From positions 1 through 25,854 of the forward strand of contig JALURJ010000209.1 of assembly GCA_027016915.1 (NCBI GenBank): a stretch of 25,854 bases of DNA, read 5' to 3'. Origin of the DNA: Desulfurococcales archaeon (lineage in GTDB: Archaea > Thermoproteota > Thermoprotei_A > Sulfolobales > WAQK01). The translations under genes were made by a program, and so were the position numbers. The notes beneath the pieces were generated by a model, which worked only from the letters and a program-made list of their open reading frames with translations, made no database searches and was not told where the DNA came from. Below, piece after piece: positions 2 through 19,294 of the stretch. How positions within the stretch are numbered: the stretch's first letter is position 1; each line of letters opens with the position of its first letter.

Positions 2-1282
2 ATTGCGCGGATTAAGGCCTACCAGGTTGATAATGGCGGGAACAGGGATCTTGATCCCCTAGACTTCGCCGACCTCCCCGACAATGTTAAGGTTAAGGTA
101 AAGGATGAGGTTGCAACAAACATACTCGGAGCTCTGAAGAAGAAATACGGTACCCTGAGAAACGCTTCAAGGGAACTGGGCGTCAGTGAGGCCTATCTAT
201 ACAGCTTCAACAAACATGCCCATTATTACGATAAGCTGAAGCTCGTACTAGAAGCTGTGGGCCGATCCCTCAGGACAACCGATATTGAGTATGTGGAGTA
301 TCGTAACGGATTTAGGCATAGGATCCCTGAGTTCAACGCTGATTTCGGGTACCTTATAGGCTACATGCTGGGGGACGGCACAGTATATATGCACAGGGAG
401 CTGAACAAGGGGTACATCAGGATATCCGTAAAGGACAGTGAAACAGCTCGGTATCTAGTAATTCTCATGGAGAAGCTTTTCGGGCGAAAACCGACTGTAG
501 TGAAGGATAGGCGGGCCGGGGTCATAGATATAACGTTTAACTCCATAGTGCTGGCGAGAATACTTCACGCACTAGGCGTGAGGAAGCCTAAGGCCAAGGC
601 GTCCATACATCCGCTACTAACGAGTCTTGGAGACGGCTTTCTCTCGATGCTCATAGCTGGCCTCATAGACTCTGATGGATCCTATATAATTAGGAAAGCC
701 GGGAACAAAGCTGGGGTCAGGGTAAGTATAGAGTTTAACACTACTAGTAAAGACCTTGCATATAAGCTACACATGTTGTTGCTCAGAATGGGCATATTTA
801 GCAGGATAAGAACCAGGAAGCCCAAAGCTGCGGAGCTTAGAAACCGTAAAGTTAGGGGTAAATTCGTGAAATATGTGGTTACCATAGCTGACCGAGAGAG
901 TATCAAGAAGTACGCTCAGAACATTTCATCCCCGTTAGAGAGGAACAGAAGAATCCTAGAAGAGATGGCCAGACTAGCGAAGGGGAAACTGCTAGACACA
1001 GTGCCGTCCGTTCTGGTAAAAGACATACTACGAAAATACCTCAAGCACAAGGAGGCGAAAAACGCGCTTATAAGCAAAAGCGTGTCAAGAACATGGCTAA
1101 GCAAAGTTTTAGACAAAATCCCGGAGGGCAGGGATAAGGAGTACCTCGAAAAACTTGTCAGAACACCGATATTTTGGGACAGAGTGAAAACCGTCACCAT
1201 ACAACCCGGCCCCCACATAGTCTACGACCTCACCGTAGAGGGTCAGCACAACTTCGTAGCAAACTCTCTCATAGTACACAAC
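2..1282 (+). mobile_element. Intein 1 in MCM (N-terminus outside window) with LAGLIDADG homing endonuclease
   Basis: LAGLIDADG motifs YLIGYMLGDG and IAGLIDSDG; block F VYDLTVEGQHNFVAN; terminal VHN followed by +1 Thr of TAAVLRD, matching the known MCM GL|TAAV insertion site. Confidence 0.95.
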
Positions 1283-3862
1283 ACCGCGGCCGTCCTCCGC
1301 GACAAGACTACAGGTGAGTATTATCTCGAAGCAGGAGCACTTGTACTAGCGGATGGCGGCGTGGCATGCCTTCATCCCGAGACCAGGGTTTTAGCCAATA
1401 ATGAGTATGTGCGTATCAGCGAGTTGTTCCGCGAGGATGTAGCGTTTAGTGCCTCGTCTAAGGGAGAGCCTGTAGAGCTTAGCCCCGTTAGGTGTAATGT
1501 AGTGGGGGTAAGGCTAGACAGGCTGGCCGTAGAAAGCGCCATTGCCAGCATTGTGAGGAAAAAACGGTGGCGTGGGGAGCTAGTTAGGTTTGTCTTCAAG
1601 AGTGGAGCCGAACTCATGGTGACGCCGGATCATCTGCTGATAGATGCTGATACCCTGGAGTGGAGGGAGGCGGGCAGCTTCAAGGTTGGAGACAGGGTGC
1701 TCTCGCTACAGAGGATACCTGGACATAACCATGATGTGTACATCCTAGATCTAGTTCCCGGCGAGTGGACCGCCGTCGTTGAGGGCAGGGATGCCGAGCA
1801 TTTGGTAGAAATAGCTAGGAGACTGTATGGTGGTCTCTCGAACCTCCGAAAGGCTGGGTGGAAGATCTATAGGTCACGCGGCAAGCTCTACATAAACGTA
1901 GGACTACTAAGGAAGATTCTTAGAGAAACCGGGCTATACAACGAATGGAGAGCCAAGAATACAATAAGGTATTCGAGAAAGCATCGGGCAGACGCGTTAA
2001 GGGTAGCAAAGATTACACCAGAGCTAGGCTACCTCCTAGGCTTCCTCCACGGCGACGGCTATATTATTCTGAATAAGCGGAGAGGCGTGGTGAACATAGT
2101 ACAGTCGTCTAAGCATGGACGGATCATAAATAGACTAGTGGAACTCATCGGCAAAGTTGTGGGGAAAACACCTAGGATTGATGTAAGACGCCTGGACTCA
2201 ATTATAGAGGGCAGGCGGGTCCCTATAGAATACGTTACTATCAGTGTAAACTCGGTTCTCCTAGCATACATAGCTAATTATTTCCTTGGCGATGGTCTTA
2301 GAAGACTGCCTAAGCTCCCTGATGAGGCGCTTAAGGCGTTTCTGGCGGGACTGATCGATTCAGATGGCTTGATCTCTGTGAAGAAATCGAGGGTTAACGG
2401 TGGACAGTACAAGGTTATCCATGTAGATATAGTTCTGGAGAACCGCGACCAGGTCGGCACCATACCGCTGGTCCTCAGACGTTTCGATATATATTCGAGG
2501 GTTAAAAGGAGAGGGAAAGTATGGCTTATCCAGATAACCAGTAGAGAGGACGTGGCCAGACTATTGGAGGTAATAAAACCATACAGCCTCAAGGCATCTA
2601 GAATCAGCATGCCTAAGTGGGTGAAAAACATTTCATCGAGAAAGAACCGTATACCCAGAAAATTATCGGAAATACTGGCCTCCCAGCTAATAAACTGTGT
2701 CAAGCCTTCAAACCTACTTAGGTTAGGAGCTTGGGGTATACTCTACGAGGCCTCTAAGGGCAGGAGAACTCTTGCTAAAAAGTGGCTTAGAAACCTGGTG
2801 TCCAGAATAGATTTCAGCATGCTCCCGACAGAAACAAAACAACTCCTAGAGGTGGCGATCAGCGAAGACTACTATGTCGACGAAATAGTGAGAATCGAAC
2901 GTATAGAATACGAGGGACCAGTCTACGACTTATACGTACCCGGAATCCACAACTTCCTAGCCAATGGAATAATAGTCCACAATTGTATAGACGAATTTGA
3001 TAAAATGAGAAGCGAGGACAGGAGCGCTATACACGAAGCACTCGAGCAGCAAGGCGTTAGTATCGCTAAGGCTGGTATTGTGGCTAGGTTGAATGCTAGG
3101 ACTACGGTGATTGCTGCTGGTAATCCTAAGTATGGTAGGTGGTTGGGTACGAATATTGCGGAGAATATTGAGTTGCCTCCGACGATTTTGTCGAGGTTTG
3201 ACCTGATCTTCATCTTGAGGGATGAGCCTCATCCGGAGCTGGATAGGAAGCTGGCGCGTCATGTGTTGAGGGTTCACAGGGAGGCCGAGTATATGAGGCC
3301 GGAGATACCGGTGGAGCTGTTGAAGAAGTATGTGAGCTATGCTAGGAGGAACGTGTATCCTAGGATGACGGAGCGCGCGGCGGAGATAATCGAGAAGTTC
3401 TTCGTGGAGCTGAGGAAGCAGGGCCTGGTGGAGGGTAGGGGCGGCAGGATGGTCGTGGTCCCCATCACGGCGAGGCAGCTCGAGGCCCTGGTGAGGCTGG
3501 CGGAGGCGCATGCCAGGATGGCGCTGAAGCCCGAGGTCACTGAGGAGGACGCGCTGGAGGCGATAAGGCTCATGATGGTGATGATGCAGGGCGTAGGCTA
3601 CGACACAGAGACCGGGATGATAGACTCCGACATCATAAGCGTGGGCATGCCGCGGAGCAGGCAGGAGAAGCTGTACAGGCTCTCCGAACTCATCAGGACC
3701 ATGGTCGAGGAGAGCGGCGAGGACTGCGTCAAGCTCGCCGACCTCAAAGAGAGGGCCGAGACCCTGGGCATAAAGGCCGACGAGCTCCAGAGGCTCCTAA
3801 AAATGCTGAGAGGCAAGGGAGAGATCTACGAGCGCCGCTTCGAATGCTACGCACCCGTCTAG
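2..3862 (+). CDS. mcm: Replicative MCM helicase (5'-partial), intein-containing precursor
   Basis: Frame is open from position 2; the ORF-track start at 257 is internal. Extein motifs: TAAVLRD...EAGALVLADGGVA, Walker B CIDEFDKM, EQQxVSIAKAG hairpin, AAGNP sensor 1, SRFDL arginine finger, ITARQLEALVRLAEA sensor 2, C-terminal winged helix. Confidence 0.97.
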   Translation: MARIKAYQVDNGGNRDLDPLDFADLPDNVKVKVKDEVATNILGALKKKYGTLRNASRELGVSEAYLYSFNKHAHYYDKLKLVLEAVGRSLRTTDIEYVEYRNGFRHRIPEFNADFGYLIGYMLGDGTVYMHRELNKGYIRISVKDSETARYLVILMEKLFGRKPTVVKDRRAGVIDITFNSIVLARILHALGVRKPKAKASIHPLLTSLGDGFLSMLIAGLIDSDGSYIIRKAGNKAGVRVSIEFNTTSKDLAYKLHMLLLRMGIFSRIRTRKPKAAELRNRKVRGKFVKYVVTIADRESIKKYAQNISSPLERNRRILEEMARLAKGKLLDTVPSVLVKDILRKYLKHKEAKNALISKSVSRTWLSKVLDKIPEGRDKEYLEKLVRTPIFWDRVKTVTIQPGPHIVYDLTVEGQHNFVANSLIVHNTAAVLRDKTTGEYYLEAGALVLADGGVACLHPETRVLANNEYVRISELFREDVAFSASSKGEPVELSPVRCNVVGVRLDRLAVESAIASIVRKKRWRGELVRFVFKSGAELMVTPDHLLIDADTLEWREAGSFKVGDRVLSLQRIPGHNHDVYILDLVPGEWTAVVEGRDAEHLVEIARRLYGGLSNLRKAGWKIYRSRGKLYINVGLLRKILRETGLYNEWRAKNTIRYSRKHRADALRVAKITPELGYLLGFLHGDGYIILNKRRGVVNIVQSSKHGRIINRLVELIGKVVGKTPRIDVRRLDSIIEGRRVPIEYVTISVNSVLLAYIANYFLGDGLRRLPKLPDEALKAFLAGLIDSDGLISVKKSRVNGGQYKVIHVDIVLENRDQVGTIPLVLRRFDIYSRVKRRGKVWLIQITSREDVARLLEVIKPYSLKASRISMPKWVKNISSRKNRIPRKLSEILASQLINCVKPSNLLRLGAWGILYEASKGRRTLAKKWLRNLVSRIDFSMLPTETKQLLEVAISEDYYVDEIVRIERIEYEGPVYDLYVPGIHNFLANGIIVHNCIDEFDKMRSEDRSAIHEALEQQGVSIAKAGIVARLNARTTVIAAGNPKYGRWLGTNIAENIELPPTILSRFDLIFILRDEPHPELDRKLARHVLRVHREAEYMRPEIPVELLKKYVSYARRNVYPRMTERAAEIIEKFFVELRKQGLVEGRGGRMVVVPITARQLEALVRLAEAHARMALKPEVTEEDALEAIRLMMVMMQGVGYDTETGMIDSDIISVGMPRSRQEKLYRLSELIRTMVEESGEDCVKLADLKERAETLGIKADELQRLLKMLRGKGEIYERRFECYAPV
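1367..2983 (+). mobile_element. Intein 2 in MCM (539 aa) with LAGLIDADG homing endonuclease
   Basis: Starts CLHPETRV (block A); block B VTPDH; LAGLIDADG motifs YLLGFLHGDG and FLAGLIDSDG; block F VYDLYVPGIHNFLANG; ends VHN before +1 Cys of Walker B CIDE. Confidence 0.96.
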
Positions 3863-7219: not shown

Positions 7220-7465
7220 ATGGCCGAGGAGACGGGTAGGCAGAGGTATGTTGTCGTGGTGGGGGACAAGGAGATAGAGATTAACGAGGAGGTGCTCAAC
7301 ATACTCCACGAGTATGTCCACACCCCCATGTCGCTGGAGAAGCTGGCTGAAAAGCTGGGCCTAGAGAACTGGGAGCAGGCATACGAGTTCATCAAGAAGG
7401 TGCCTGCCTGGATCATCTGGACTCCTCCAAGCCTCTGGAAGATAAAACGCATGGCTGAGGGCTAA
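7220..7465 (+). CDS. Small (81 aa) protein with HTH-like segment, function unknown
   Basis: Own promoter and RBS; MSLEKLAEKLGLENWEQAYEFIKK resembles a helix-turn-helix; Trp/Pro-rich tail. Confidence 0.8.
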   Translation: MAEETGRQRYVVVVGDKEIEINEEVLNILHEYVHTPMSLEKLAEKLGLENWEQAYEFIKKVPAWIIWTPPSLWKIKRMAEG

Positions 7466-7490
7466 TCATCTGACAGTGTTTTTAACATTA

Positions 7491-7508
7491 TAGCGGTTTT
7501 CTCCGCTA
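7491..7508. repeat. Inverted repeat TAGCGG-N6-CCGCTA (terminator or operator candidate)
   Basis: Perfect 6-bp arms in the AT-rich gap between the 7220 gene and the MoxR operon, with T-runs just upstream. Confidence 0.45.
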
Positions 7509-7579
7509 GTTAACAAATAAATACCCAGCACACCATTATCGATACCAAGGATCCCCAGCGCGCGGGGGAGGCACACTAA

Positions 7580-8638
7580 ATGAGGACACAGGCCGCCCTG
7601 CTGCTAGTATTGCTGGTGGTCACTGCAGCTTCTTCCCCACACCTAATCGGGGCCACAGAAACCACTACCCCCGAGCAGCTCTGGACTAGGCACGCCCCCA
7701 TAATAGGCAACCTCACCCTTACAGCCGAGGAGCTCCAGCAGCTCCTAGGATCCTTGCTCAACGCAACAACCGACCCGGAGCTAGCCGAGATCCTCGACGG
7801 CATGAATACAAGCCTAGCAATGGGAGACGAGGAGGGCTACAATAACGCCACCACCGAGCTACAAGAATACCTGGCTAACCTCTCCAGCGGGGAGATCTAT
7901 GCGGATATGGTTCTCGACCCAGCCACGTTGGAGAAACTGGCACTACTAGCATCCACCAACATGCAGGAGGGCGGAGGCCAGGCAAACGCAGACCTAAACC
8001 TCTACGCCCAGTTTCTAGAGCAACTGGTTGAGAGCGGCCTGCTCGGCGAGGCGGAGCCCTTGAGCGGCGAGCTAACCCCCGAGGACCTGGTTCAGACCTT
8101 GGAGGACATGGGGTTCAACGAGTCCGAAACAGCGTCCAAGAAAACGCCGCTCGAGGTAGCTAAGAGCCCGCCCCCGCTCCCCTCGGCCAGCCTGCCCTCA
8201 ACCCCTAGCCTATCCGCTCAAGGTGTAACCAGTCAACTAATCACAGCGTTCAAACTTATAGTCATATTTGCCGTCATCATGATTGCATCTTACCTCGCAT
8301 ACATGCATCGGCACAGGCTGCTCCAAGTCTCAGAGAGGCTGGCAAGCCGGATCACAGCACGGGCGAAGACCTGGGCAGCCCAGAGGGCAAAAACCCCCAG
8401 GGACGCCATTATAGCGTGCTTCGGAGCACTGGTGTCTGCAGCGTCGAGGCTCGGCTACCCTAAAAATAGGTGGGAAACAGCCAAGGAGTACGCGTCGAGG
8501 CTCGCATCCAGAGGCTTCGGACAGGCAGTGATAAAGGTGGCCAGCCTATACAACAAGGCCAAGTTCTCGACCCACGAGGTGACGTGGGACGACGTAGAGG
8601 AGTGCGTCACCTGCGTAAGAGAGGTGTCGTCAAGGTGA
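7580..8638 (+). CDS. DUF4129-like membrane-anchored protein
   Basis: N-terminal signal peptide, acidic ectodomain, Pro/Ser linker, one TM helix; C-terminal WETAKEYASRL...LYNKAKFSTH matches the DUF4129 pattern from memory; MoxR operon context. Confidence 0.78.
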   Translation: MRTQAALLLVLLVVTAASSPHLIGATETTTPEQLWTRHAPIIGNLTLTAEELQQLLGSLLNATTDPELAEILDGMNTSLAMGDEEGYNNATTELQEYLANLSSGEIYADMVLDPATLEKLALLASTNMQEGGGQANADLNLYAQFLEQLVESGLLGEAEPLSGELTPEDLVQTLEDMGFNESETASKKTPLEVAKSPPPLPSASLPSTPSLSAQGVTSQLITAFKLIVIFAVIMIASYLAYMHRHRLLQVSERLASRITARAKTWAAQRAKTPRDAIIACFGALVSAASRLGYPKNRWETAKEYASRLASRGFGQAVIKVASLYNKAKFSTHEVTWDDVEECVTCVREVSSR

Positions 8639-10128
8639 GGTTCCGCAGCTTCCTAATAGGCCTTGTACTGGTAGGCCTCGTCGCCTCTCTCTACTCGGCT
8701 CCGAAGACCCTTTTCATGAGCATGGTGTTCGAAGGAACCCCGGCACCCTACAACACGGGGTGGGTGGGGACTAGCGAGCTGGCCCGGCTCCTCAGGAGGC
8801 AGGGCTACAATGTCTACGCTCCAACCGCCTGGGACAGGGTGGAGGACATAGTTTTGGGCGGAAATTATACACGCTACATACTTGTATTCATATCACCCGA
8901 AAAGCCAATAACAAGCTATGAGGCCAGCCGCATAGCCTCGATGCTGCAGGTAGCCAATATCTCCATACTCGTAGCCGATGAAGCCGAAACATCCAATGAG
9001 CTGCTAGGGTATTTTGGAGCCCGTGTCACGGGTGAACGCCTGGAAGGGCCCGAGGGCTCGGGCTACATATACGCCTCCCTAAACGTCCCGGTGAACGGCT
9101 TCTCGAAATCCTACATGCTGCAGCTTAGCATAGCTTCCGGCATAGATGTGGAGCTCTTCAGGAGGCCTGGAAAGGCGCCTTTAACCGTTGCGACGGAAAC
9201 TATATCGCTGACCCAGGACGGTGTGCTCGTTGGGGCATTTATCAGGTATACCTATCTCCGCACCTTTGGTAGGGTGGCGGTCTTCGGGGATGGCACGATT
9301 TTCCTCAACACGGCGCTGAGACACTCAACACCCACAATGAACTACACAGACTTCGCGCTGGCAGTGTTCTCCTCTCTCTCCATGGGGGCGAACCCCAACG
9401 ATATAGCAGTAGTGCTTGACACTTCCCACTACCACTCCAACCTCCCCAACGTTACGAGCGATATGAGGCCGGAGGAGGCCCTGAGAAACTATGTGCAGGC
9501 ACCGCTCCCAATAATAATCCACCCATCCATGATAGTGTTCCTAGCGATATGGCTGCTCCGCGCCCTCGAGAAAATGTATTTCGAGGCTCTCTCGACAAAC
9601 CCTGCCATAGGCGTACCAATAATTGCCGCCATCTCGTACCTTGTCTACCGCGGAGTTATGGGGAACATGGGTGTCAGAATGGTCAACGATGACGTCATTA
9701 GGAGCGTTGAGGAGACGAGCATCGTGGCTGAAACCCCTCTCCGCACAAGACTGCTTAAATCGGCTAAGCTCTCCCGCCGAGAGGCCCTTGAGGCCCTTTA
9801 CAACCTCTCGGTCACACTGGACTATCTTTTGGAGAAGCATCTAAACGTCTCCCTTAGGGAGCTCGTCGAGGACCCTGGAATCCTTGAGGCCGCGTCCCGT
9901 GTCCTCCAGGTCGAACCTGAGAGGCTGCAGAGGCTCGCTTCCAAGCTCATGGCCCTAAGGGAGAGGTATGAGGGTGTGAGAAGGTTCACACCCATAGTCT
10001 TTAGGTGGAACGCATTGGTGAGGAAAATGGTGTACGAGTCGGAGGGCATATTAGAGAAGTTAGGCTATACGCTTATAGGAGAAAAGGAGGGTTATAAGGG
10101 TGTAGAGTATGGGGTTAGAAAATACTAG
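8635..10128 (+). CDS. DUF4350-like membrane protein (497 aa)
   Basis: GTG at 8635 overlaps the upstream TGA (GTGA) and is followed by a signal/TM segment. [16 protein letters not shown] and FGDGTIFLN resemble DUF4350. Two C-terminal TM segments, then a helical tail. Confidence 0.75.
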
Positions 10129-11074
10129 TGGGACCCCCGTGGACACGGAATATGCTGGAAGCATAACCGAGAGCATCCTTAACGAGGTAGGAAAAATCCT
10201 GGTGGGCAAGGAGAAAGACGTGCTATTCATCCTAGCAGCACTGGTGGCTGGAGGCCACGTTTTACTCGAGGGCGTGCCCGGCGTAGCCAAGACGACAATG
10301 GCAAAAGCTGTTGCGTCAGCGCTGAACCTTAAGTTCAAGAGAATACAGTTTACCCCGGACCTCCTGCCAACAGACATTGTTGGAACCATGGTTTACGATC
10401 CTAAGACGGGGGAGTTCAGGCTAAGGAGGGGCCCCATATTCGCCAACATAGTATTGGCCGACGAGATCAACAGGGCCAGCCCTAGGACCCAGTCAGCCCT
10501 CCTAGAGGCGATGCAGGAGCGCCAGGTAACAATAGAGGGTAACACGCTGAGGCTCCCCGAGCCCTTCATAGTGATAGCGACTCAGAACCCGATAGAGCTG
10601 GAGGGAACCTTCCCACTGCCCGAGGCCCAGGTGGATAGATTCCTTATGAAGCTCGACGTCGGCTACCCCACCAAGCCCGAAACCATAGAGATGCTTAAGA
10701 GGCTCAGAACCATAGAGGAGTGGCCCGTAAGGCCCGTGGCCTCGGAGAAGGACATAATGGCCCTCCGCGCCATGGCCTGGAACGTCCATGTGGACGAGTC
10801 TATCCTGAACTATATTGCGGACATTGTAGAGGAGACACGCAGGCACCCGACTGTGAGACTTGGAGGCTCGCCGAGGGCGGCAATATCGCTACTCCAAGTC
10901 TCCAGGGCGCTGGCGCTGCTGGACGGCAGAGACTACGTCCTGCCAGACGACGTCAAGAACGCCGCCAAACCAGTGTTGAGGCACAGGATAATTCTGACGC
11001 CTGAAGCCGAGATCGAGGGCATAGACCCTAACCAGGTTATCGACGAGATACTCCGGAAAATCCCTGCACCCTAG
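10109..11074 (+). CDS. moxR: MoxR family AAA+ ATPase
   Basis: [78 protein letters not shown]. Confidence 0.96.
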
Positions 11075-11083
11075 GGGGCCCGT

Positions 11084-12451
11084 ATGGGCGTCTCGATAGC
11101 ACCTATAGGCGAGGGACTCACTCCTAGAGGCCGAGCCCTCCTAGCAGCTGCTAGCATACTCTTCGGCCTCCTAGCCATAGTCTCCGAGGCCAACATGAGC
11201 GTCATACTCGTACTGGCCTCCTTCCTCATGGTCTTCATTTACCTATCCAAGGTCACCCTCGATTTCAAAATCAACGTCGCAAGGAAGCTGAAGGCAAGGA
11301 GAATATTCGAAAAGCCGATAGTCGAGGGGCGGCCCTTAAAGGTTACGGTCAGGATAGAGAACCCCACACTGGCACCCCTCGAAATAATCGAGATCTTCGA
11401 CCCCTACCCCTCCAAGTTCCGCCTCCACCGCGGCTCTAATACCAGTATAGCCTACATACCCGCCAGCGGCTTCTTCGAGCTTTCCTACGAGGTTCTCCCA
11501 GTACTCGGAAAACATGAGTTCGGGAACCCAAGAATAGTCATCAGGGACCCTGCTGGCCTTTTTTCCAGAGAAATAGAACTCAGGGTAAACAACGTGGTGG
11601 AGGTCCAGCCCCGCTACGAGCCTATTCATCGACGCGGCCTCCTCGTCGTGCCCACCCTGATGCCTGGGGGAGTGTCCAGCATCAAGCGGCGAGGCATAGG
11701 GATGCAGTTTATGGACATAAGGGAGTACGTGCCAGGCGACGAGTACAGGAAGATAGAGTGGAAGGCCACTGCCAGGACTGGGCGTTTGATGGTTAAGGAG
11801 TTCGAGCAAGAGTCGAGCCTCGAGGTCATGCTTATTCTAGATACAAGGGACACTATGAGCTATGGCGTGCTGGGGCAGACAAAGCTCGAATACGTGGTAA
11901 GAGGGGCTGCAGCCATTGCGGGATACCTGTTAAGACGAGGAGACTTCGTGGGTCTAGCCTATGCCAGCATGGATGGTCTAAGGGTTCTCAAGCCTAGGAG
12001 GGGGCCAGCGCACTTCAAGCTATTAATGCGGGCCCTGGCCAAGATAACGTGGCCCATACCTGGGCTCATGGGCTCAACGCCGCTCCACACCGTGATTCGC
12101 CAGGCGGCCTCCCGCGCCACGAGGCGGGGTAAAAACCTGTTCATAGTGTTCAGTGATCTCGAGATGCCTGCTGAGGAACTACCCCTATACATTAACCTAT
12201 TCAGCAAGCTCCGCGGCATGAGGAGCGAGGTCATAGTGATATCGCCCTACACGCCGCTTTTCGAGGTCAAGGGCATGAGTGGGATGAGCGCCGTGATCTA
12301 CAGGCTCTACGCTTCCAGAAGCATAAGGGAGAGGGAGAAGACCGTTAGGGCGCTGCTGAGGCACGGGATACCGCTGGTAAACGTGGGGCCGGAGGACCTT
12401 GTAACCCACACGCTTCTCAGGATTGAAGCCATCAGGCAGAGGTTGAGCTGA
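11084..12451 (+). CDS. DUF58 / VWA-domain protein (COG1721-like) with two N-terminal TM helices
   Basis: GMQFMDIREYVPGDEYRKIEWKATAR...VKEFE DUF58 signature; VWA-like ILDTRDTM, STPL and VFSD segments; directly after moxR. Confidence 0.92.
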   Translation: MGVSIAPIGEGLTPRGRALLAAASILFGLLAIVSEANMSVILVLASFLMVFIYLSKVTLDFKINVARKLKARRIFEKPIVEGRPLKVTVRIENPTLAPLEIIEIFDPYPSKFRLHRGSNTSIAYIPASGFFELSYEVLPVLGKHEFGNPRIVIRDPAGLFSREIELRVNNVVEVQPRYEPIHRRGLLVVPTLMPGGVSSIKRRGIGMQFMDIREYVPGDEYRKIEWKATARTGRLMVKEFEQESSLEVMLILDTRDTMSYGVLGQTKLEYVVRGAAAIAGYLLRRGDFVGLAYASMDGLRVLKPRRGPAHFKLLMRALAKITWPIPGLMGSTPLHTVIRQAASRATRRGKNLFIVFSDLEMPAEELPLYINLFSKLRGMRSEVIVISPYTPLFEVKGMSGMSAVIYRLYASRSIREREKTVRALLRHGIPLVNVGPEDLVTHTLLRIEAIRQRLS

Positions 12452-12452
12452 A

Positions 12453-13754
12453 ATGGGTTTCACTGAGAGGGTGAGGCAGGCTCTCAGGCCCTACGGGTCA
12501 GGCACCCAGGCAGCTGTTACGCTGGCTGGCATGACCATGGCGTCGATACTGGTACTCTACGCCTCCTATAGGCTGGCAGCCGCGGCACACAGCGGATACT
12601 CTGCCGAGAACCCGCCTTTCAACAAGTTGCCCGGCGCGCCGGTGGTTTCCCTGCCATACCTGGGCCCCCAGAGCATGGCCGAGCTAGCCGTGCTAGGTGT
12701 GAAGATGCTGGCAGTCCTCCTAGGCATTCTAGCCACCTACTACTCGATCCGCGGGGGCGGTATGGCCAAGAGCATAATATATCTATACGTACTCCTGGTC
12801 ATAGCTGCTGGAACTGGGAGGGTTGGTCTGAGGGATATAGCGGTCCTGATAACGGCAACCATGCTACTACTATATACCTATCCATTCAGGCGCAGCGTGG
12901 AGCTTGCACTCCGAGGTAAAGGGGGAGCGATGCTTCAAAGCTCGGGCTCAAGAGCAGCCAGCTTAGCCTTCACACTGGCCTCCTACTTCATACCCCTAAG
13001 CCTCTCGATAGGGGTGGCGAGCATAATTGCAGCGATGGCGGTGATCGCTACGAGGATAAGGCTCGATGTCCCGCCGCCTCTACCCAACATATGGAGCCTG
13101 TTCCTAGAGACAAGGGTCGCATTCATAGTGCTGGGGCTTGCAGCGATACTCGTGGCGCTCTGGCTTATAGGAGACCTGCTTGAGAGCGTCCTGCTGATGG
13201 CGATACTCATGCCCGAGGAAGCCCTTGACACGGCCTACCGGGAAGCGTCAAGGGATCTGGAAGAGCTTGAAGCCTGGAGGACTTGGCACCAAGCCATACC
13301 ATTGAGGCTTTACACGATGTTGGCCAGCATAATCATCTACATTGTAGCCCTAGAAGTCATAGATAGGATAGAGGCACTGCTGAAACCCTACCTGGCGCCC
13401 GGAATACCATGGTATATCCGGAGCCTGCTAAGCCTGGCCGTGGTCGTAGCGCTCTGGAGCACCATATCGGAAAAGCTGAAAAACCTGATCATGGTTAGAG
13501 GGAGCCTTAGGTTCAACTGGGCCGCCGCTGCGTTAACTGTAATGATAGTGGGCTTCCTCGTAGCCTTGTGGTACCAGGGGGCGGGAACCCTAGACCCCAT
13601 ATACTATGCGCTAGGGCTGGAGAAACCTACAGGCAGCGGCGACGTAATCTCCATTCTTAACCTGTGGCCCCAGGGTGTAGACGCGAAGATTGAAGGTATG
13701 TTTAAAAGCTTTGAGAAAATAGCTAGACTAGTGATCAAATTCCTATGGGGATAA
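12453..13754 (+). CDS. Polytopic membrane protein, unknown function
   Basis: 433 aa with about 10 hydrophobic segments; starts 1 nt after the DUF58 stop. Confidence 0.8.
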   Translation: MGFTERVRQALRPYGSGTQAAVTLAGMTMASILVLYASYRLAAAAHSGYSAENPPFNKLPGAPVVSLPYLGPQSMAELAVLGVKMLAVLLGILATYYSIRGGGMAKSIIYLYVLLVIAAGTGRVGLRDIAVLITATMLLLYTYPFRRSVELALRGKGGAMLQSSGSRAASLAFTLASYFIPLSLSIGVASIIAAMAVIATRIRLDVPPPLPNIWSLFLETRVAFIVLGLAAILVALWLIGDLLESVLLMAILMPEEALDTAYREASRDLEELEAWRTWHQAIPLRLYTMLASIIIYIVALEVIDRIEALLKPYLAPGIPWYIRSLLSLAVVVALWSTISEKLKNLIMVRGSLRFNWAAAALTVMIVGFLVALWYQGAGTLDPIYYALGLEKPTGSGDVISILNLWPQGVDAKIEGMFKSFEKIARLVIKFLWG

Positions 13755-13993
13755 CCGTGGTCTCGGGAGAGGCGATTAAAAGCGCCATTCTCGGGCTAAC
13801 CGCTATAGCCCTTATCCTAGTTAGCCTCTACTTCTTCCTTCTCAGCATAAGCCTAGCATCTGCCGCCGAGCCCAACATCACTGCATCCCTCCTCTCAGCC
13901 CTTATAGGGTTCTCAGTGCTGTCCTCGGGTGTGACCATACTGAGGTCGTGGGCTATAGCCAGGGTAGCCGAAAGGGCGGCTGAACAAAGGTAG
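13745..13993 (+). CDS. Small two-TM membrane protein, unknown function
   Basis: 82 aa with two hydrophobic helices; overlaps the upstream gene by 10 nt. Confidence 0.72.
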   Translation: MGITVVSGEAIKSAILGLTAIALILVSLYFFLLSISLASAAEPNITASLLSALIGFSVLSSGVTILRSWAIARVAERAAEQR

Positions 13994-14095
13994 CTTCCCG
14001 CGTCTAAGTCCTTTTCTTTAGCGTCTTCCTGCGAGGCGTACCCACGCAGTTACTGTTAGGGCATCATTGCTTTACACCTCTACCGTACTCTGTAT

Positions 14096-14112
14096 GGGGC
14101 GGGCACCGCCCC
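14096..14112. repeat. GC-rich hairpin GGGGCGG-GCA-CCGCCCC
   Basis: Perfect 7-bp arms in the gap between convergent genes. Confidence 0.5.
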
Positions 14113-14136
14113 TTGTAGAAGCCCTGAAACCCGTTA

Positions 14137-14210
14137 TGTGGGGCTCAGCCGGGGGTTCTTAAGGACGCTTCACAGCCCACTATGGGCTCATCGGCGGCGT
14201 GGCTTCAGCA
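14137..14210 (-). ncRNA. Candidate K-turn-containing small RNA (box C/D- or H/ACA-like)
   Basis: Minus strand reads ACGC-CGCC-GAUGA-GCCCA-UAG-UGGGC-UGUGA-AGCGU, then CUGA at 14148-14145 and ACA at 14139-14137; no coding potential. Internal D'/C' boxes are not canonical. Confidence 0.3.
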
Positions 14211-14215
14211 TCCTG

Positions 14216-16736: not shown

Positions 16737-18218
16737 ATGAGTCAAGGTAAGCAGGGTAGCGTGAGGCCCTTCCTGAACTACGCGGTTACGGTACTTTCTA
16801 TATCCTCTTCCTTCATCCTGGTTGTCCCCCTAATCTACGACTTCATAGTATACGGTGCCCCAACCCAGGTGGGCGCCTACCTCTTCATGTGGGGTGTCCT
16901 CATACTAGGTGTAGGCATGGTCCTCAGACACCTCACCTACACCACTGCCCCGCTCACGCTCACCAGTGCCCTCTACATAACCCTGCTCAACTGGCTCGTG
17001 GTGCCTGTCCTCATAGCTATGCCTGTGGCCCGAGTTTTGGCCATACCGTTCGTGGACGCATGGTTCGAGGCTGTGAGCGGCCTCACAACCACGGGTCTCT
17101 CGGTTTTCTCAGGCTCATACGACAATGGGGTTTACGTTCCCAGCGTTGAGGAGCTACCGCCGGAGATCCTGCTATGGCGAAGCCTGAGCCAGTGGGTAGG
17201 CGGCCTGGGGATCGTGGTGTTCATGATTGTGGTTATTGCCCGTACACCGGGCATAGTGGTCCTATACAGGTCGGAGGGCAGATTCGAGAGGCTGGAGCCC
17301 AGCCTTGCCAAGACGGTGCGCGAGATGCTGGCTATCTACACGTTGCTCACATTCGTCGAAACCCTGGTTCTCAGGTATACTGGGATGTCCTGGTTCGACG
17401 CCGTCAACCACGCCATGACGGCGTTGTCGACGGGCGGCTTCTCCACGAGGAATGACAGCATAGCTGCCTTCGCGTCAAGGATTCTGGAGATAACAACCAT
17501 TATAGGCATGTGGCTGGGCGCCACCAACTTCCTGGACCACAAAAACATGCTTAAGGCGAGGATCCAGGAGCTCCTCAGATCCGTGGAGCTGAAAACCTTC
17601 ATATTCCTTCTAACAATACTAACCGGCTTCTCAGCCTATCTTCTCAGGATAGGCAGCGTGCTTGATACCGACGAGCTCTGGCGCCGCTTCTATCAGGTCT
17701 TCTCAGCCCTCACAACCACAGGGTTTCAGACTGTAGATATACATGCAGAGGACCCGGCCTTTAAGATGGTTCTCATAGTAGCTATGCTCATAGGCGGATC
17801 TGTGTTCTCCACCGCCGGCGGCGTCAAGCTTCTGAGGATAGCGATAGTAGCCAAGTCGCTTAAGAACATGATTGCCTCGTTCATAACCCCGAAAGGCTAC
17901 ATAGCTTCGTCAAGGCTGGGCAGGTACACCGTCACACCGGGCCTGGCCGTGGAGGCGTTAGGCCTAATATTCATATACGTGGTCACGGTGATAGTCTCCA
18001 CGCTGATAATGGTGCCCTTCGTGTCTTCGGAGTACAGCTTTATGGACGTGTTCTTTGAGGCAGCCTCAGGCCTGGCCACCACAGGGCTTTCCTCAGGGAT
18101 ATCAAGCGCCTCGGCCCATCTGGTGGTAAAGCTGGTCCTCATGGCCGACATGATCCTAGGCAGGCTTGAGATAGTCCCCTTCGTGGTAGGCATTTACAGC
18201 CTCACACGTAGGAGGTGA
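16737..18218 (+). CDS. trkH: TrkH-family K+ uptake membrane subunit
   Basis: Four pore loops (SGLTTTG, ALSTGG, ALTTTG, GLATTG), GGSVFSTAGGVK, LGRLE. Confidence 0.93.
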   Translation: MSQGKQGSVRPFLNYAVTVLSISSSFILVVPLIYDFIVYGAPTQVGAYLFMWGVLILGVGMVLRHLTYTTAPLTLTSALYITLLNWLVVPVLIAMPVARVLAIPFVDAWFEAVSGLTTTGLSVFSGSYDNGVYVPSVEELPPEILLWRSLSQWVGGLGIVVFMIVVIARTPGIVVLYRSEGRFERLEPSLAKTVREMLAIYTLLTFVETLVLRYTGMSWFDAVNHAMTALSTGGFSTRNDSIAAFASRILEITTIIGMWLGATNFLDHKNMLKARIQELLRSVELKTFIFLLTILTGFSAYLLRIGSVLDTDELWRRFYQVFSALTTTGFQTVDIHAEDPAFKMVLIVAMLIGGSVFSTAGGVKLLRIAIVAKSLKNMIASFITPKGYIASSRLGRYTVTPGLAVEALGLIFIYVVTVIVSTLIMVPFVSSEYSFMDVFFEAASGLATTGLSSGISSASAHLVVKLVLMADMILGRLEIVPFVVGIYSLTRRR

Positions 18219-19294
18219 ACCACATGGGGGAGAAGCCGGGCGAACTTGGACCGGAGCACTGGGATAGGGTGCTTAGAAGGATCCAGGTAACCGGGGGCTC
18301 AACCTATATAGTATCGCTGCCTAAGGAATGGGTTAGACGTAGCAACCTCAGCCGCGGCGACTATGTAGAGCTGGTGCTGGAGCTCGACGGTTCGCTTAGG
18401 ATCAGGCCTGCTGAGCGAAGAGCGGAGAAGCCTGAGACCAGCATGACTGTGTCCAAGGATGAGCCCTCAGAGTGGGTTCTACGGGAATTCATATCCAGGT
18501 ACCTGGCCGGATACTATACTATACGCGTATTCTTCGAGGACAACGTGGCGCCGTACAGGAGGCTGTTCAGGGTAGTTATCCCTGACAAGCTGATAGGGGT
18601 AGAGGTTGTGGACGAGTCGACAAGACACTTGGTGGCCCAATGCCTCGTGAACGTTCACGAACTTCCCCTTTCAACTGCTATCCAGAGGGCGTACAGGATA
18701 GTCTACACCATGATCTACGACGCGTTAAAGGTTGTTTCGGGAGAGCTGGGTGCTGAGATGCTGGACGACATAGTTGAGAGGGACGATCTGGTGGACAAAT
18801 TCTACCTGTACAGCGTAAGGCAGCTCAATGAGCTCCTGGCTGGCCTGATTTCCCCCAGCGAAATAGGGCTTGCAAGGCTTAGCGACTCCCTCACCTATAG
18901 AATTATGGTGAAAAACCTGGAGAGGATGGGGGATCATGCTAGAAGGGTGGCGAAAAGCCTTAAGATGCTGAAGAAGCCTGTTTTGGAACCAAATCTTGGC
19001 AGGGTCGTTGTAAGGCTGGGCGAGGAATCTCTAAAACTGCTGGAGGACTCCTACAAGAGCTTCAGAGAAGGCAACACGGAGCTTGCACACAGGGTTATAG
19101 ACGAGGTTAACCAAAGGCTACCCCAACTCGAGGGCCAGGCTCTCTCGTTCATCCTGGACAGGAACTACACCTCTAGGCAAATAACTTTGCTCAAAACGGT
19201 GGTTGAGAGCCTTAAAAGGGTCGCCGAGTACAGCGCCGACATAGCGGAGCTAGCCATAGATATGTCCGTCCACGGCGGCAGCGGTGTTGGCTAG
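18215..19294 (+). CDS. Archaeal PhoU-type regulator (N-terminal AbrB-like domain + PhoU repeats)
   Basis: RRIQVTGGSTYIVSLPKEWV AbrB-like N-terminus; PhoU motifs ERDDLVDKFY, KNLERMGDH, SLKRVAEYSADIAE. Confidence 0.88.
   Translation: MNHMGEKPGELGPEHWDRVLRRIQVTGGSTYIVSLPKEWVRRSNLSRGDYVELVLELDGSLRIRPAERRAEKPETSMTVSKDEPSEWVLREFISRYLAGYYTIRVFFEDNVAPYRRLFRVVIPDKLIGVEVVDESTRHLVAQCLVNVHELPLSTAIQRAYRIVYTMIYDALKVVSGELGAEMLDDIVERDDLVDKFYLYSVRQLNELLAGLISPSEIGLARLSDSLTYRIMVKNLERMGDHARRVAKSLKMLKKPVLEPNLGRVVVRLGEESLKLLEDSYKSFREGNTELAHRVIDEVNQRLPQLEGQALSFILDRNYTSRQITLLKTVVESLKRVAEYSADIAELAIDMSVHGGSGVG

Follow-up and report, generated by a model that had tools for sequence, protein, structure and literature searches.

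Six genes at positions 7,580-13,993 of a 25,854-nucleotide (nt) stretch of DNA from a Desulfurococcales archaeon (contig JALURJ010000209.1; 'the window' refers to the whole stretch) form a genuine conserved unit, of a kind that is already known from computational prediction. In order, they encode a protein with a DUF4129 tail (g1), a DUF4350 protein (g2), a MoxR-type AAA+ ATPase (g3), a DUF58 protein resembling a von Willebrand factor A (vWA) domain (g4), a polytopic membrane protein (g5) and a small protein with two transmembrane (TM) segments (g6). The locus is probably one copy of a widespread membrane module with the first four of these as its core, which the Pyrodictiaceae lineage seems to have extended by the orphan g5 and the small g6. 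How the module works can be proposed only tentatively: in the reading that we favour, and consider quite possible, the membrane-tethered DUF58 protein links MoxR with the tails that two surface proteins, g1 and g2, extend into the cytoplasm. The source genome, of an uncultured vent archaeon, is a 1.72-Mb metagenome-assembled genome (MAG) of 352 contigs that is 88% complete, with the window as contig C209; the closest relative with a name is a hydrothermal-vent MAG of the Pyrodictiaceae.

That the six genes were inherited as a unit is strongly indicated by their order in other genomes. Order and equally tight junctions are kept in the close relative (L020/L033) and in genomes G084, G068 and G063 (L029, L030 and L031), and the order is kept in part in G003 (L032). 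These last four genomes belong to other families of the class and have different or unrelated flanking genes, so the arrangement is more than chance. Sequence identity with G084 is very uneven (MoxR 71%, g6 61%, DUF58 52%, DUF4350 43%, g5 37% and g1 33%). All six genes, g5 and g6 included, are under purifying selection, with ratios of non-synonymous to synonymous substitution rates against the close relative of 0.14 for g1, 0.12 for g2, 0.03 for g3, 0.08 for g4, 0.12 for g5 and 0.08 for g6, compared with 0.06 for the neighbouring mscS.

The six open reading frames (ORFs) lie on the plus strand and are separated by -4 (GTGA), -20, +9, +1 and -10 nt, exactly the overlaps and gaps that a sequence-only reading of this DNA had reported, leaving internal junctions too short to house promoters. 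The close relative has gene calls of matching length and with the same overlaps, which supports starting g2 at a GTG (8635) and g3 at an ATG (10109). By hydropathy, five of the six products have a predicted membrane anchor, MoxR being the sole exception, as had also been claimed. Only one T6 run occurs in the whole 6.4 kb, at 11559. The transcription signals (Table 1) are thin, yet consistent with a single operon, and co-transcription is what we infer.

Table 1 Coordinates of the operon, its flanking signals and the two paralogous modules (window positions unless a locus is given; AF2, AlphaFold2)
Feature	Position	Strand	Basis
Upstream intergenic region, 127 nt; putative promoter region	7453..7579	+	Read from sequence
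TATA-like element AAATAAATA; putative promoter, only one near operon start	7515-7523	+	Read from sequence
Shine-Dalgarno-like run GGGGGAGG	7564-7571	+	Read from sequence
g1, 352 aa, DUF4129 protein	7580..8638	+	ORF, Pfam, hydropathy
g2, 497 aa, DUF4350 protein; GTG start overlapping g1 stop (GTGA)	8635..10128	+	ORF, Pfam, AF2 model
g3, 321 aa, MoxR AAA+ ATPase, soluble	10109..11074	+	Pfam AAA_3 and AAA_lid_2
g4, 455 aa, DUF58 (vWA-like) protein	11084..12451	+	Pfam, hydropathy
g5, 433 aa, polytopic membrane protein, at least 7-9 helices	12453..13754	+	Hydropathy
g6, 82 aa, 2-TM protein	13745..13993	+	Hydropathy, alignment
Convergent intergenic region before minus-strand MscS gene (predicted)	13994..14215	.	
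T-rich tract TTTTCTTT, likely transcript end	14012-14019	.	
Second module (contig C340): DUF4129-like 259 aa, DUF4350 376, MoxR 307, DUF58 426, polytopic 296, g6-like 59 aa	L017:10590-15781	-	
Rearranged module (contig C214): polytopic 468 aa, MoxR 317, 5-TM 229, 2-TM 255, DUF4129 protein 606, DUF4350 282	L018:956-7609	-	

The source genome encodes three paralogous modules in total. The one on contig C340 has the same gene order as the window, with a MoxR that is 61% identical to g3 and a DUF58 protein that is 29% identical to its counterpart; this short module type was also found in Pyrodictium and other Thermoproteota loci (L076, L080, L083 and L112). The module on contig C214 is rearranged and contains no detectable DUF58. 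All three DUF4129 genes of the genome sit in these MoxR clusters. Orthologues in other families are nearer to the window genes than are the paralogues within the genome, so the duplication is probably old. A fourth MoxR (349 aa) lies on contig C53 (L019:495-3422) beside a divergently transcribed, soluble DUF58 protein (338 aa, no TM), apparently a different, non-membrane pairing of the two families.

We searched a DUF58 alignment against one genome per prokaryotic species and ran iterative hidden Markov models over 80 fetched loci. The module order recurred across Thermoproteota and Asgard loci with different flanks. In 19 archaeal loci with intact upstream DNA, a large protein with signal-peptide or TM features precedes a DUF4350 gene placed directly 5' of MoxR-DUF58, and nearly all (the exception being L112) have a polytopic membrane protein on the 3' side. 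Their sources are Pyrodictiaceae, further Thermoproteota and MAGs of Odin-, Jord-, Njord- and Hel-archaea. Of 151 genomes searched within the class to which the window belongs, 80 contain DUF4350; they represent most families, yet one large family contributes just 1 of its 34 genomes. As for control genomes, Haloferax volcanii gave matches for DUF58, DUF4350, DUF4129 and AAA_3, and Sulfolobus acidocaldarius gave none for DUF58, DUF4350 or DUF4129. Given the latter result and the near absence of DUF4350 from the large family, a Sulfolobales host, as had been suggested for genetic work, would be a poor choice. Members of arCOG01314 (DUF4350) named in PMC5898192 include TON_1832 and PAB1295.

In g1, a signal peptide (about residues 1-25) is followed by an ectodomain (26-219), a TM segment (220-238) and a basic tail with DUF4129 (residues 280-347, nt 8417-8620; Pfam, 42 bits), which thus sits after the last TM segment, as in TgpA-type triads. 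The ectodomain, of about 190 residues, is acidic (31 Asp/Glu versus 5 Lys/Arg) and has six N-glycosylation sequons and a Pro/Ser stalk. The position of g1 is taken in Asgard and other Thermoproteota loci by giant proteins of 590-1634 aa, with a transglutaminase core, a weak TgpA_N match, immunoglobulin (Ig)-like repeats (MG2, Big_1 and CarboxypepD_reg), a TM segment and a C-terminal DUF4129. This layout is the TgpA architecture, and Transglut_core itself was found in four of these positional equivalents (L036, L037, L045 and L054). Pfam searches detected no Transglut_core in g1, nor was a transglutaminase core found anywhere in the 88%-complete genome. The enzyme domain therefore seems dispensable for the module core, and g1 retains only the signal peptide, the acidic, sequon-rich ectodomain, the TM segment and the DUF4129 tail. 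Across loci the ectodomain evolves fast, its length ranging from 190 to about 1,500 residues. The invariant part of the module is the DUF4129 tail, DUF4350, MoxR and DUF58.

In g2, an N-terminal hydrophobic segment (signal or anchor) precedes a large ectodomain and then hydrophobic segments at about residues 290-345. DUF4350 covers residues 38-228 (nt 8746-9318) and scores 33 bits in Pfam, where the cut-off is 30.4. The AF2 model is good (predicted local distance difference test (pLDDT) 83) and matched DUF4350 clusters (E 6e-17) and 'ABC-type uncharacterized transport system' clusters in AFDB; a fold search of the ectodomain against PDB gave only weak matches, to class-I glutamine amidotransferases (GATase1-like). 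The modelled ectodomain fold appears to be GATase1/flavodoxin-like, of the GldG-like kind. The ectodomain contains no Cys and so has no GATase catalytic triad. The tail (about residues 375-475) was modelled as a conserved helical domain with a pLDDT of about 90; that it might be a second DUF4129 was ruled out (hhalign probability 0.1%). One AFDB cluster, A0A7J3BHY6 ('DUF58 domain-containing protein', 833 aa), aligns with g2 residues 1-477 and may be a natural DUF4350-DUF58 fusion. Our search found no solved structures sequence-related to DUF58 or DUF4350.

The ATPase g3 matches AAA_3 (224 bits) and AAA_lid_2 (94 bits) in Pfam, the bpMoxR profile at 46 bits and, weakly, chelatase families. Its motifs are intact, including Walker A (GVPGVAKT), Walker B (IVLADE), sensor 1 (ATQN) and Arg in the expected regions, and its single hydrophobic stretch is the strand leading into Walker A, so the protein is soluble. 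The DUF58 gene, g4, begins 9 nt 3' of g3; an adjacent DUF58 gene is the criterion that PMC12067865 attributes to Snider and Houry 2006 for MRP-type, DUF58-associated MoxR ATPases. DUF58 spans residues 211-359 of g4 (Pfam, 95 bits), with a weak VWA_2 match as well. At the N terminus is a 2-TM hairpin (about residues 18-54), then a basic segment (8 Lys/Arg in 26 residues), and the soluble part has one sequon in 401 residues. The motif resembling a metal-ion-dependent adhesion site (MIDAS) is degenerate, reading DTRDT rather than DxSxS, and is variable among orthologues. The sequence-only reading had stated that operons of DUF58, DUF4350 and DUF4129 have no established substrate. Our literature search agrees: the full texts searched gave no function for DUF4350 or DUF4129, and a 2025 review describes the role of DUF58 as still unknown.

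The membrane partner g5 belongs to a tiny family, with 10 cluster representatives among 1.84 billion proteins in an exhaustive HMMER search and one relative in a word-indexed search. Its members share conserved PPPLPD-W and TWHQ motifs and an invariant C-terminal LWG; g5 itself contains no Cys. Neither g5 nor g6 has a family in Pfam, NCBIfam or PADLOC, every ESM Atlas match to g5 scored 0.80 or less, and Exosortase_EpsH was not found in the source genome. The AF2 model of g5 was poor (pLDDT 64, predicted template-modelling score 0.45), and fold searches with it returned only noise and no transporter or secretion fold. In hhalign comparisons, no homology was detectable between the g5 family, the polytopic proteins of Asgard loci, the short paralogues of Pyrodictium and the SpoIIM of bacteria, links among polytopic partners being limited to g5 with L103 (88%) and the Asgard family with L042 (94%). 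Across lineages, the polytopic partners would have either diverged very fast or been replaced. An amphipathic helix and then the terminal residues (F/L)LWG close every member of the g5 family; in the short polytopic proteins encoded at L046 and L054, a similar helix leads to a terminal LLRW. The gene immediately after each of these is g6-like. The shared ends suggest a conserved C-terminal contact element despite undetectable overall homology. The g6 protein shows 28-88% identity to its relatives in an alignment of 12 homologues, drawn from Thermoproteota and Pyrodictiaceae modules and from both paralogue types, with F30 and G55 invariant, and is always encoded 3' of the polytopic gene. No equivalent was seen in the Asgard loci examined, and g6 appears to be specific to Thermoproteota.

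As a proxy for exposure at the cell surface, we counted N-glycosylation sequons per 1,000 residues in 16-25 archaeal homologues. Densities were 1.6 for MoxR, 1.8 for the soluble part of DUF58 and 0 for the DUF4129 tails, compared with 9.6 for DUF4350 ectodomains and 26.6 for the ectodomains of DUF4129 proteins. The g2 tail has 2.3 per 1,000 versus 14.1 for its own ectodomain. Charge agrees with these densities: a Lys/Arg-rich segment follows the DUF58 hairpin, a basic segment follows the TM segment of g1, and Asgard and bacterial DUF4350 homologues have a single TM segment and then a Lys/Arg-rich stretch. From their low sequon density and the Lys/Arg-rich segments after the TM segments, we place DUF58, DUF4129 and the g2 tail in the cytoplasm. 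It is therefore strongly indicated that g1 and g2 are type-I-like surface glycoproteins with conserved cytoplasmic tails, and that the 2-TM hairpin of DUF58 tethers it to the cytoplasmic side of the membrane. This is the topology that the sequence-only reading had put forward, and the sequon and charge evidence fits it.

On this topology, DUF58 would be an adaptor, by analogy with other MoxR/vWA pairs, that binds the cytoplasmic tails of g1 and g2 and passes them to the hexameric MoxR. By remodelling the tails at the expense of ATP, MoxR would then govern the assembly, conformation or turnover of the surface complex, an inside-out form of control for which g5 and g6 might provide the membrane platform. 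In lineages with a giant transglutaminase/Ig-repeat g1, the controlled output could be a surface cross-linking or anchoring activity; in the source genome, where no transglutaminase is left, the ectodomains of g1 and g2 could themselves be that output, serving as scaffolding for the envelope or glycoprotein layer. That MoxR would pull on the tails is pure conjecture. More broadly still, the DUF4129-DUF4350-MoxR-DUF58 core might be an ancient inside-out machine, in which an AAA+ ATPase controls extracellular proteins mechanically through their tails by way of a vWA-like adaptor, a prokaryotic analogue of integrin-type activation with lineage-specific polytopic partners such as g5 and g6 as interchangeable platforms; this extension we regard as doubtful.

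Several observations weigh against the coupling of MoxR to surface-protein tails. In the Pyrodictiaceae lineage, g2 has two hydrophobic segments (residues 293-321 and 323-344) that AF2 modelled as two helices, and if both span the membrane, the g2 tail would lie outside the cell. A cytoplasmic DUF58 also conflicts with Makarova, Galperin and Koonin 2015, where the vWA protein is called 'likely secreted'. With the MIDAS of DUF58 degenerate, classical vWA-style target binding is uncertain. The polytopic partners have no detectable homology across lineages, so a role for them is not transferable from one lineage to another. Finally, the sequencing runs that match the locus are DNA metagenomes only, with none among RNA runs.

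Other explanations seem to us less well supported than the adaptor reading. The module might be an outside-in sensor, in which the variable ectodomains of g1 and g2 detect a cue (a virus, an epibiont or surface contact) and MoxR-DUF58 transduces the signal or sets its threshold. The fast evolution of the g1 ectodomain and the presence of three modules in one genome would suit such a role, as would the match of g3 to bpMoxR, the role proposed for MoxR-vWA conflict systems and the Esr pathway, which joins a surface sensor, a transglutaminase anchor, MoxR and vWA. However, AAA_3 scores far above bpMoxR on g3, and the operon and its conserved neighbours encode no kinase, phosphatase, FHA domain, beta-propeller, effector or transcription factor. 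Nor did PADLOC match any defence model beyond generic AAA, and a defence system was accordingly rejected as a candidate. We consider sensing unlikely. A secretion or membrane-remodelling system, in which the GldG-like DUF4350 and the membrane proteins form a conduit that MoxR assembles or regulates (Makarova et al. 2015), is the published prediction for neighbourhoods of arCOG01314, and is in keeping with the transport-system folds matched by the g2 ectodomain and with the two integral membrane proteins of the operon. Against it stand the lack of a recognisable translocation ATPase, channel family or cargo gene, the lack of any transporter or secretion fold match for g5, the differences in the polytopic component among lineages and the sequon density of DUF58, which appears cytoplasmic. 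Moreover, MoxR ATPases are known to act as remodellers, not as translocases. On balance a conduit is somewhat less probable than a sensor.

Far less probable is a chaperone that inserts a cofactor or metal into a membrane enzyme, in the manner of NorQ/NorD, CoxD/CoxE, CbbQ/CbbO or Mg-chelatase. Such insertion is a frequent role of MoxR and vWA pairs, and g3 has its weak chelatase-family matches, but the conserved unit encodes no enzyme, the flanking genes are not conserved, the Cys-free g2 ectodomain has no GATase triad and the DUF58 MIDAS is degenerate. It is least probable of all, and hardly credible, that the six genes are mere neighbours without a joint function. The absence of matching RNA runs and the internal T6 run would allow it. 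Set against these are the overlapping or very short junctions, a gene order that families of the class and Asgard archaea share despite different flanks, and the paralogous module that keeps the same order in the same genome.

Among gene sets that lack any assigned function, the module is one of the more widespread, being present in many archaea (Asgard included) and in many bacteria, among them the mycobacterial Rv3689-Rv3695. It joins a cytoplasmic ATPase to cell-surface proteins, and its function would explain how the surface is built or regulated in some prokaryotes and, once learned, give a role to four Pfam domains of unknown function. What the window adds is a minimal, transglutaminase-free variant, evidence for a cytoplasmic placement of DUF58 and both tails, and the lineage-specific partners g5 and g6. 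Also new is the set of three paralogous modules in the source genome.

The genes around the operon are ordinary archaeal housekeeping genes. Upstream lie an intein-bearing MCM gene, a Hel308-type helicase and a histone-deacetylase-family gene; downstream are MscS (minus strand), pyrF, a phosphoribosyltransferase and TrkH. The MCM gene (window 2-3862) carries two LAGLIDADG inteins, with Intein_splicing and LAGLIDADG_3 each matched in two stretches in Pfam. Directly 3' of TrkH, the ORF at 18215-19294 combines an AbrB/MazE-type domain and two PhoU domains in one protein.

The sequence-only reading had singled out the operon as its best candidate for an undescribed system. The system is not undescribed: a description and model of the arCOG01314/DUF4350-MoxR-vWA neighbourhood, as a predicted secretion or membrane-remodelling complex, appeared in 2015 (Makarova, Galperin and Koonin 2015), and a bacterial counterpart is common. 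Within the literature searched, the archaeal system is treated by that paper alone. Its neighbourhood shares with the window a membrane-anchored DUF4350 protein with a signal peptide and a large ectodomain, an adjacent COG0714 MoxR and a vWA protein in the same predicted operon (Ig-plus-vWA, DUF58-type there). Extra membrane proteins are a further shared feature, with 2-3 and about 5 TM segments in the paper. A DUF4129/TgpA-like first gene, present in the window as g1, is not mentioned in the paper, and no Pfam family of the Ig- or S-layer-like partners described there (arCOG02884/pfam07760/DUF1616) was found in g1, g5, g6 or the flanks; such partners are frequent, not obligatory (Makarova 2015).

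The bacterial (RDD)-SpoIIM-DUF4129-DUF4350-MoxR-DUF58 cluster of the Rv3689-Rv3695 type has the same core order as the window (L072, L082 and L061). In bacterial loci a SpoIIM-family protein (PF01944) stands beside the core (E 2e-41 and 6e-34), whereas g5 has no PF01944 match and aligns with SpoIIM at an hhalign probability of only 0.1%; the window likewise has no RDD match. Unlike in the bacterial cluster, the archaeal polytopic gene lies 3' of DUF58, on the same strand. In an RNA-seq table for Mycobacterium chelonae, the Rv3689-Rv3695 orthologues (a membrane protein, DUF4350, MoxR, DUF58, SpoIIM and RDD) drop together, with log2 values of -6.2 to -7.8.

TgpA-type triads share with g1 the C-terminal DUF4129 and differ from it in having Transglut_core. 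For Pseudomonas aeruginosa, we take PA2875 and PA2874 to be the MoxR and DUF58 members of such a triad, which the paper on these genes does not state. There, the genes PA2875-PA2874-tgpA share a transcript; tgpA is essential, and transglutaminase activity resides in the periplasmic domain of its product (PMC3507681). DUF4350, present in the window, is missing from this triad and from the PFNA cluster of Bifidobacterium (PMC8430577, as cited in PMC12067865).

Classical MoxR/vWA pairs resemble the window in placing an AAA+ gene next to a vWA-type gene. In RavA-ViaA, CbbQ-CbbO and NorQ-NorD, an AAA+ hexamer works with a vWA-type adaptor that is encoded alongside, has a canonical MIDAS and acts on soluble or membrane enzymes. 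In the window, by contrast, the predicted partners sit at the cell surface and have tails in the cytoplasm, and DUF58 has a degenerate MIDAS. The ternary systems of MoxR, vWA and beta-propeller proteins (Kaur et al. 2020, PMC7159879) add a beta-propeller and effector or signalling genes, of which the operon and its flanks have none. In the actinobacterial Esr pathway, described for Schaalia odontolytica (bioRxiv 10.64898/2026.09.08.750141), MoxR and vWA act with kinase/FHA signalling, a surface sensor and a transglutaminase that is required for retaining the sensor on the cell. Its beta-propeller sensor, Ser/Thr kinase and phosphatase, FHA proteins and Esx effectors have no counterparts in the operon or its flanks. 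Like the module, however, Esr encodes a surface protein, MoxR, vWA and transglutaminase together, and it is the nearest experimentally tested analogue and the only tested case of such a set acting across the envelope.

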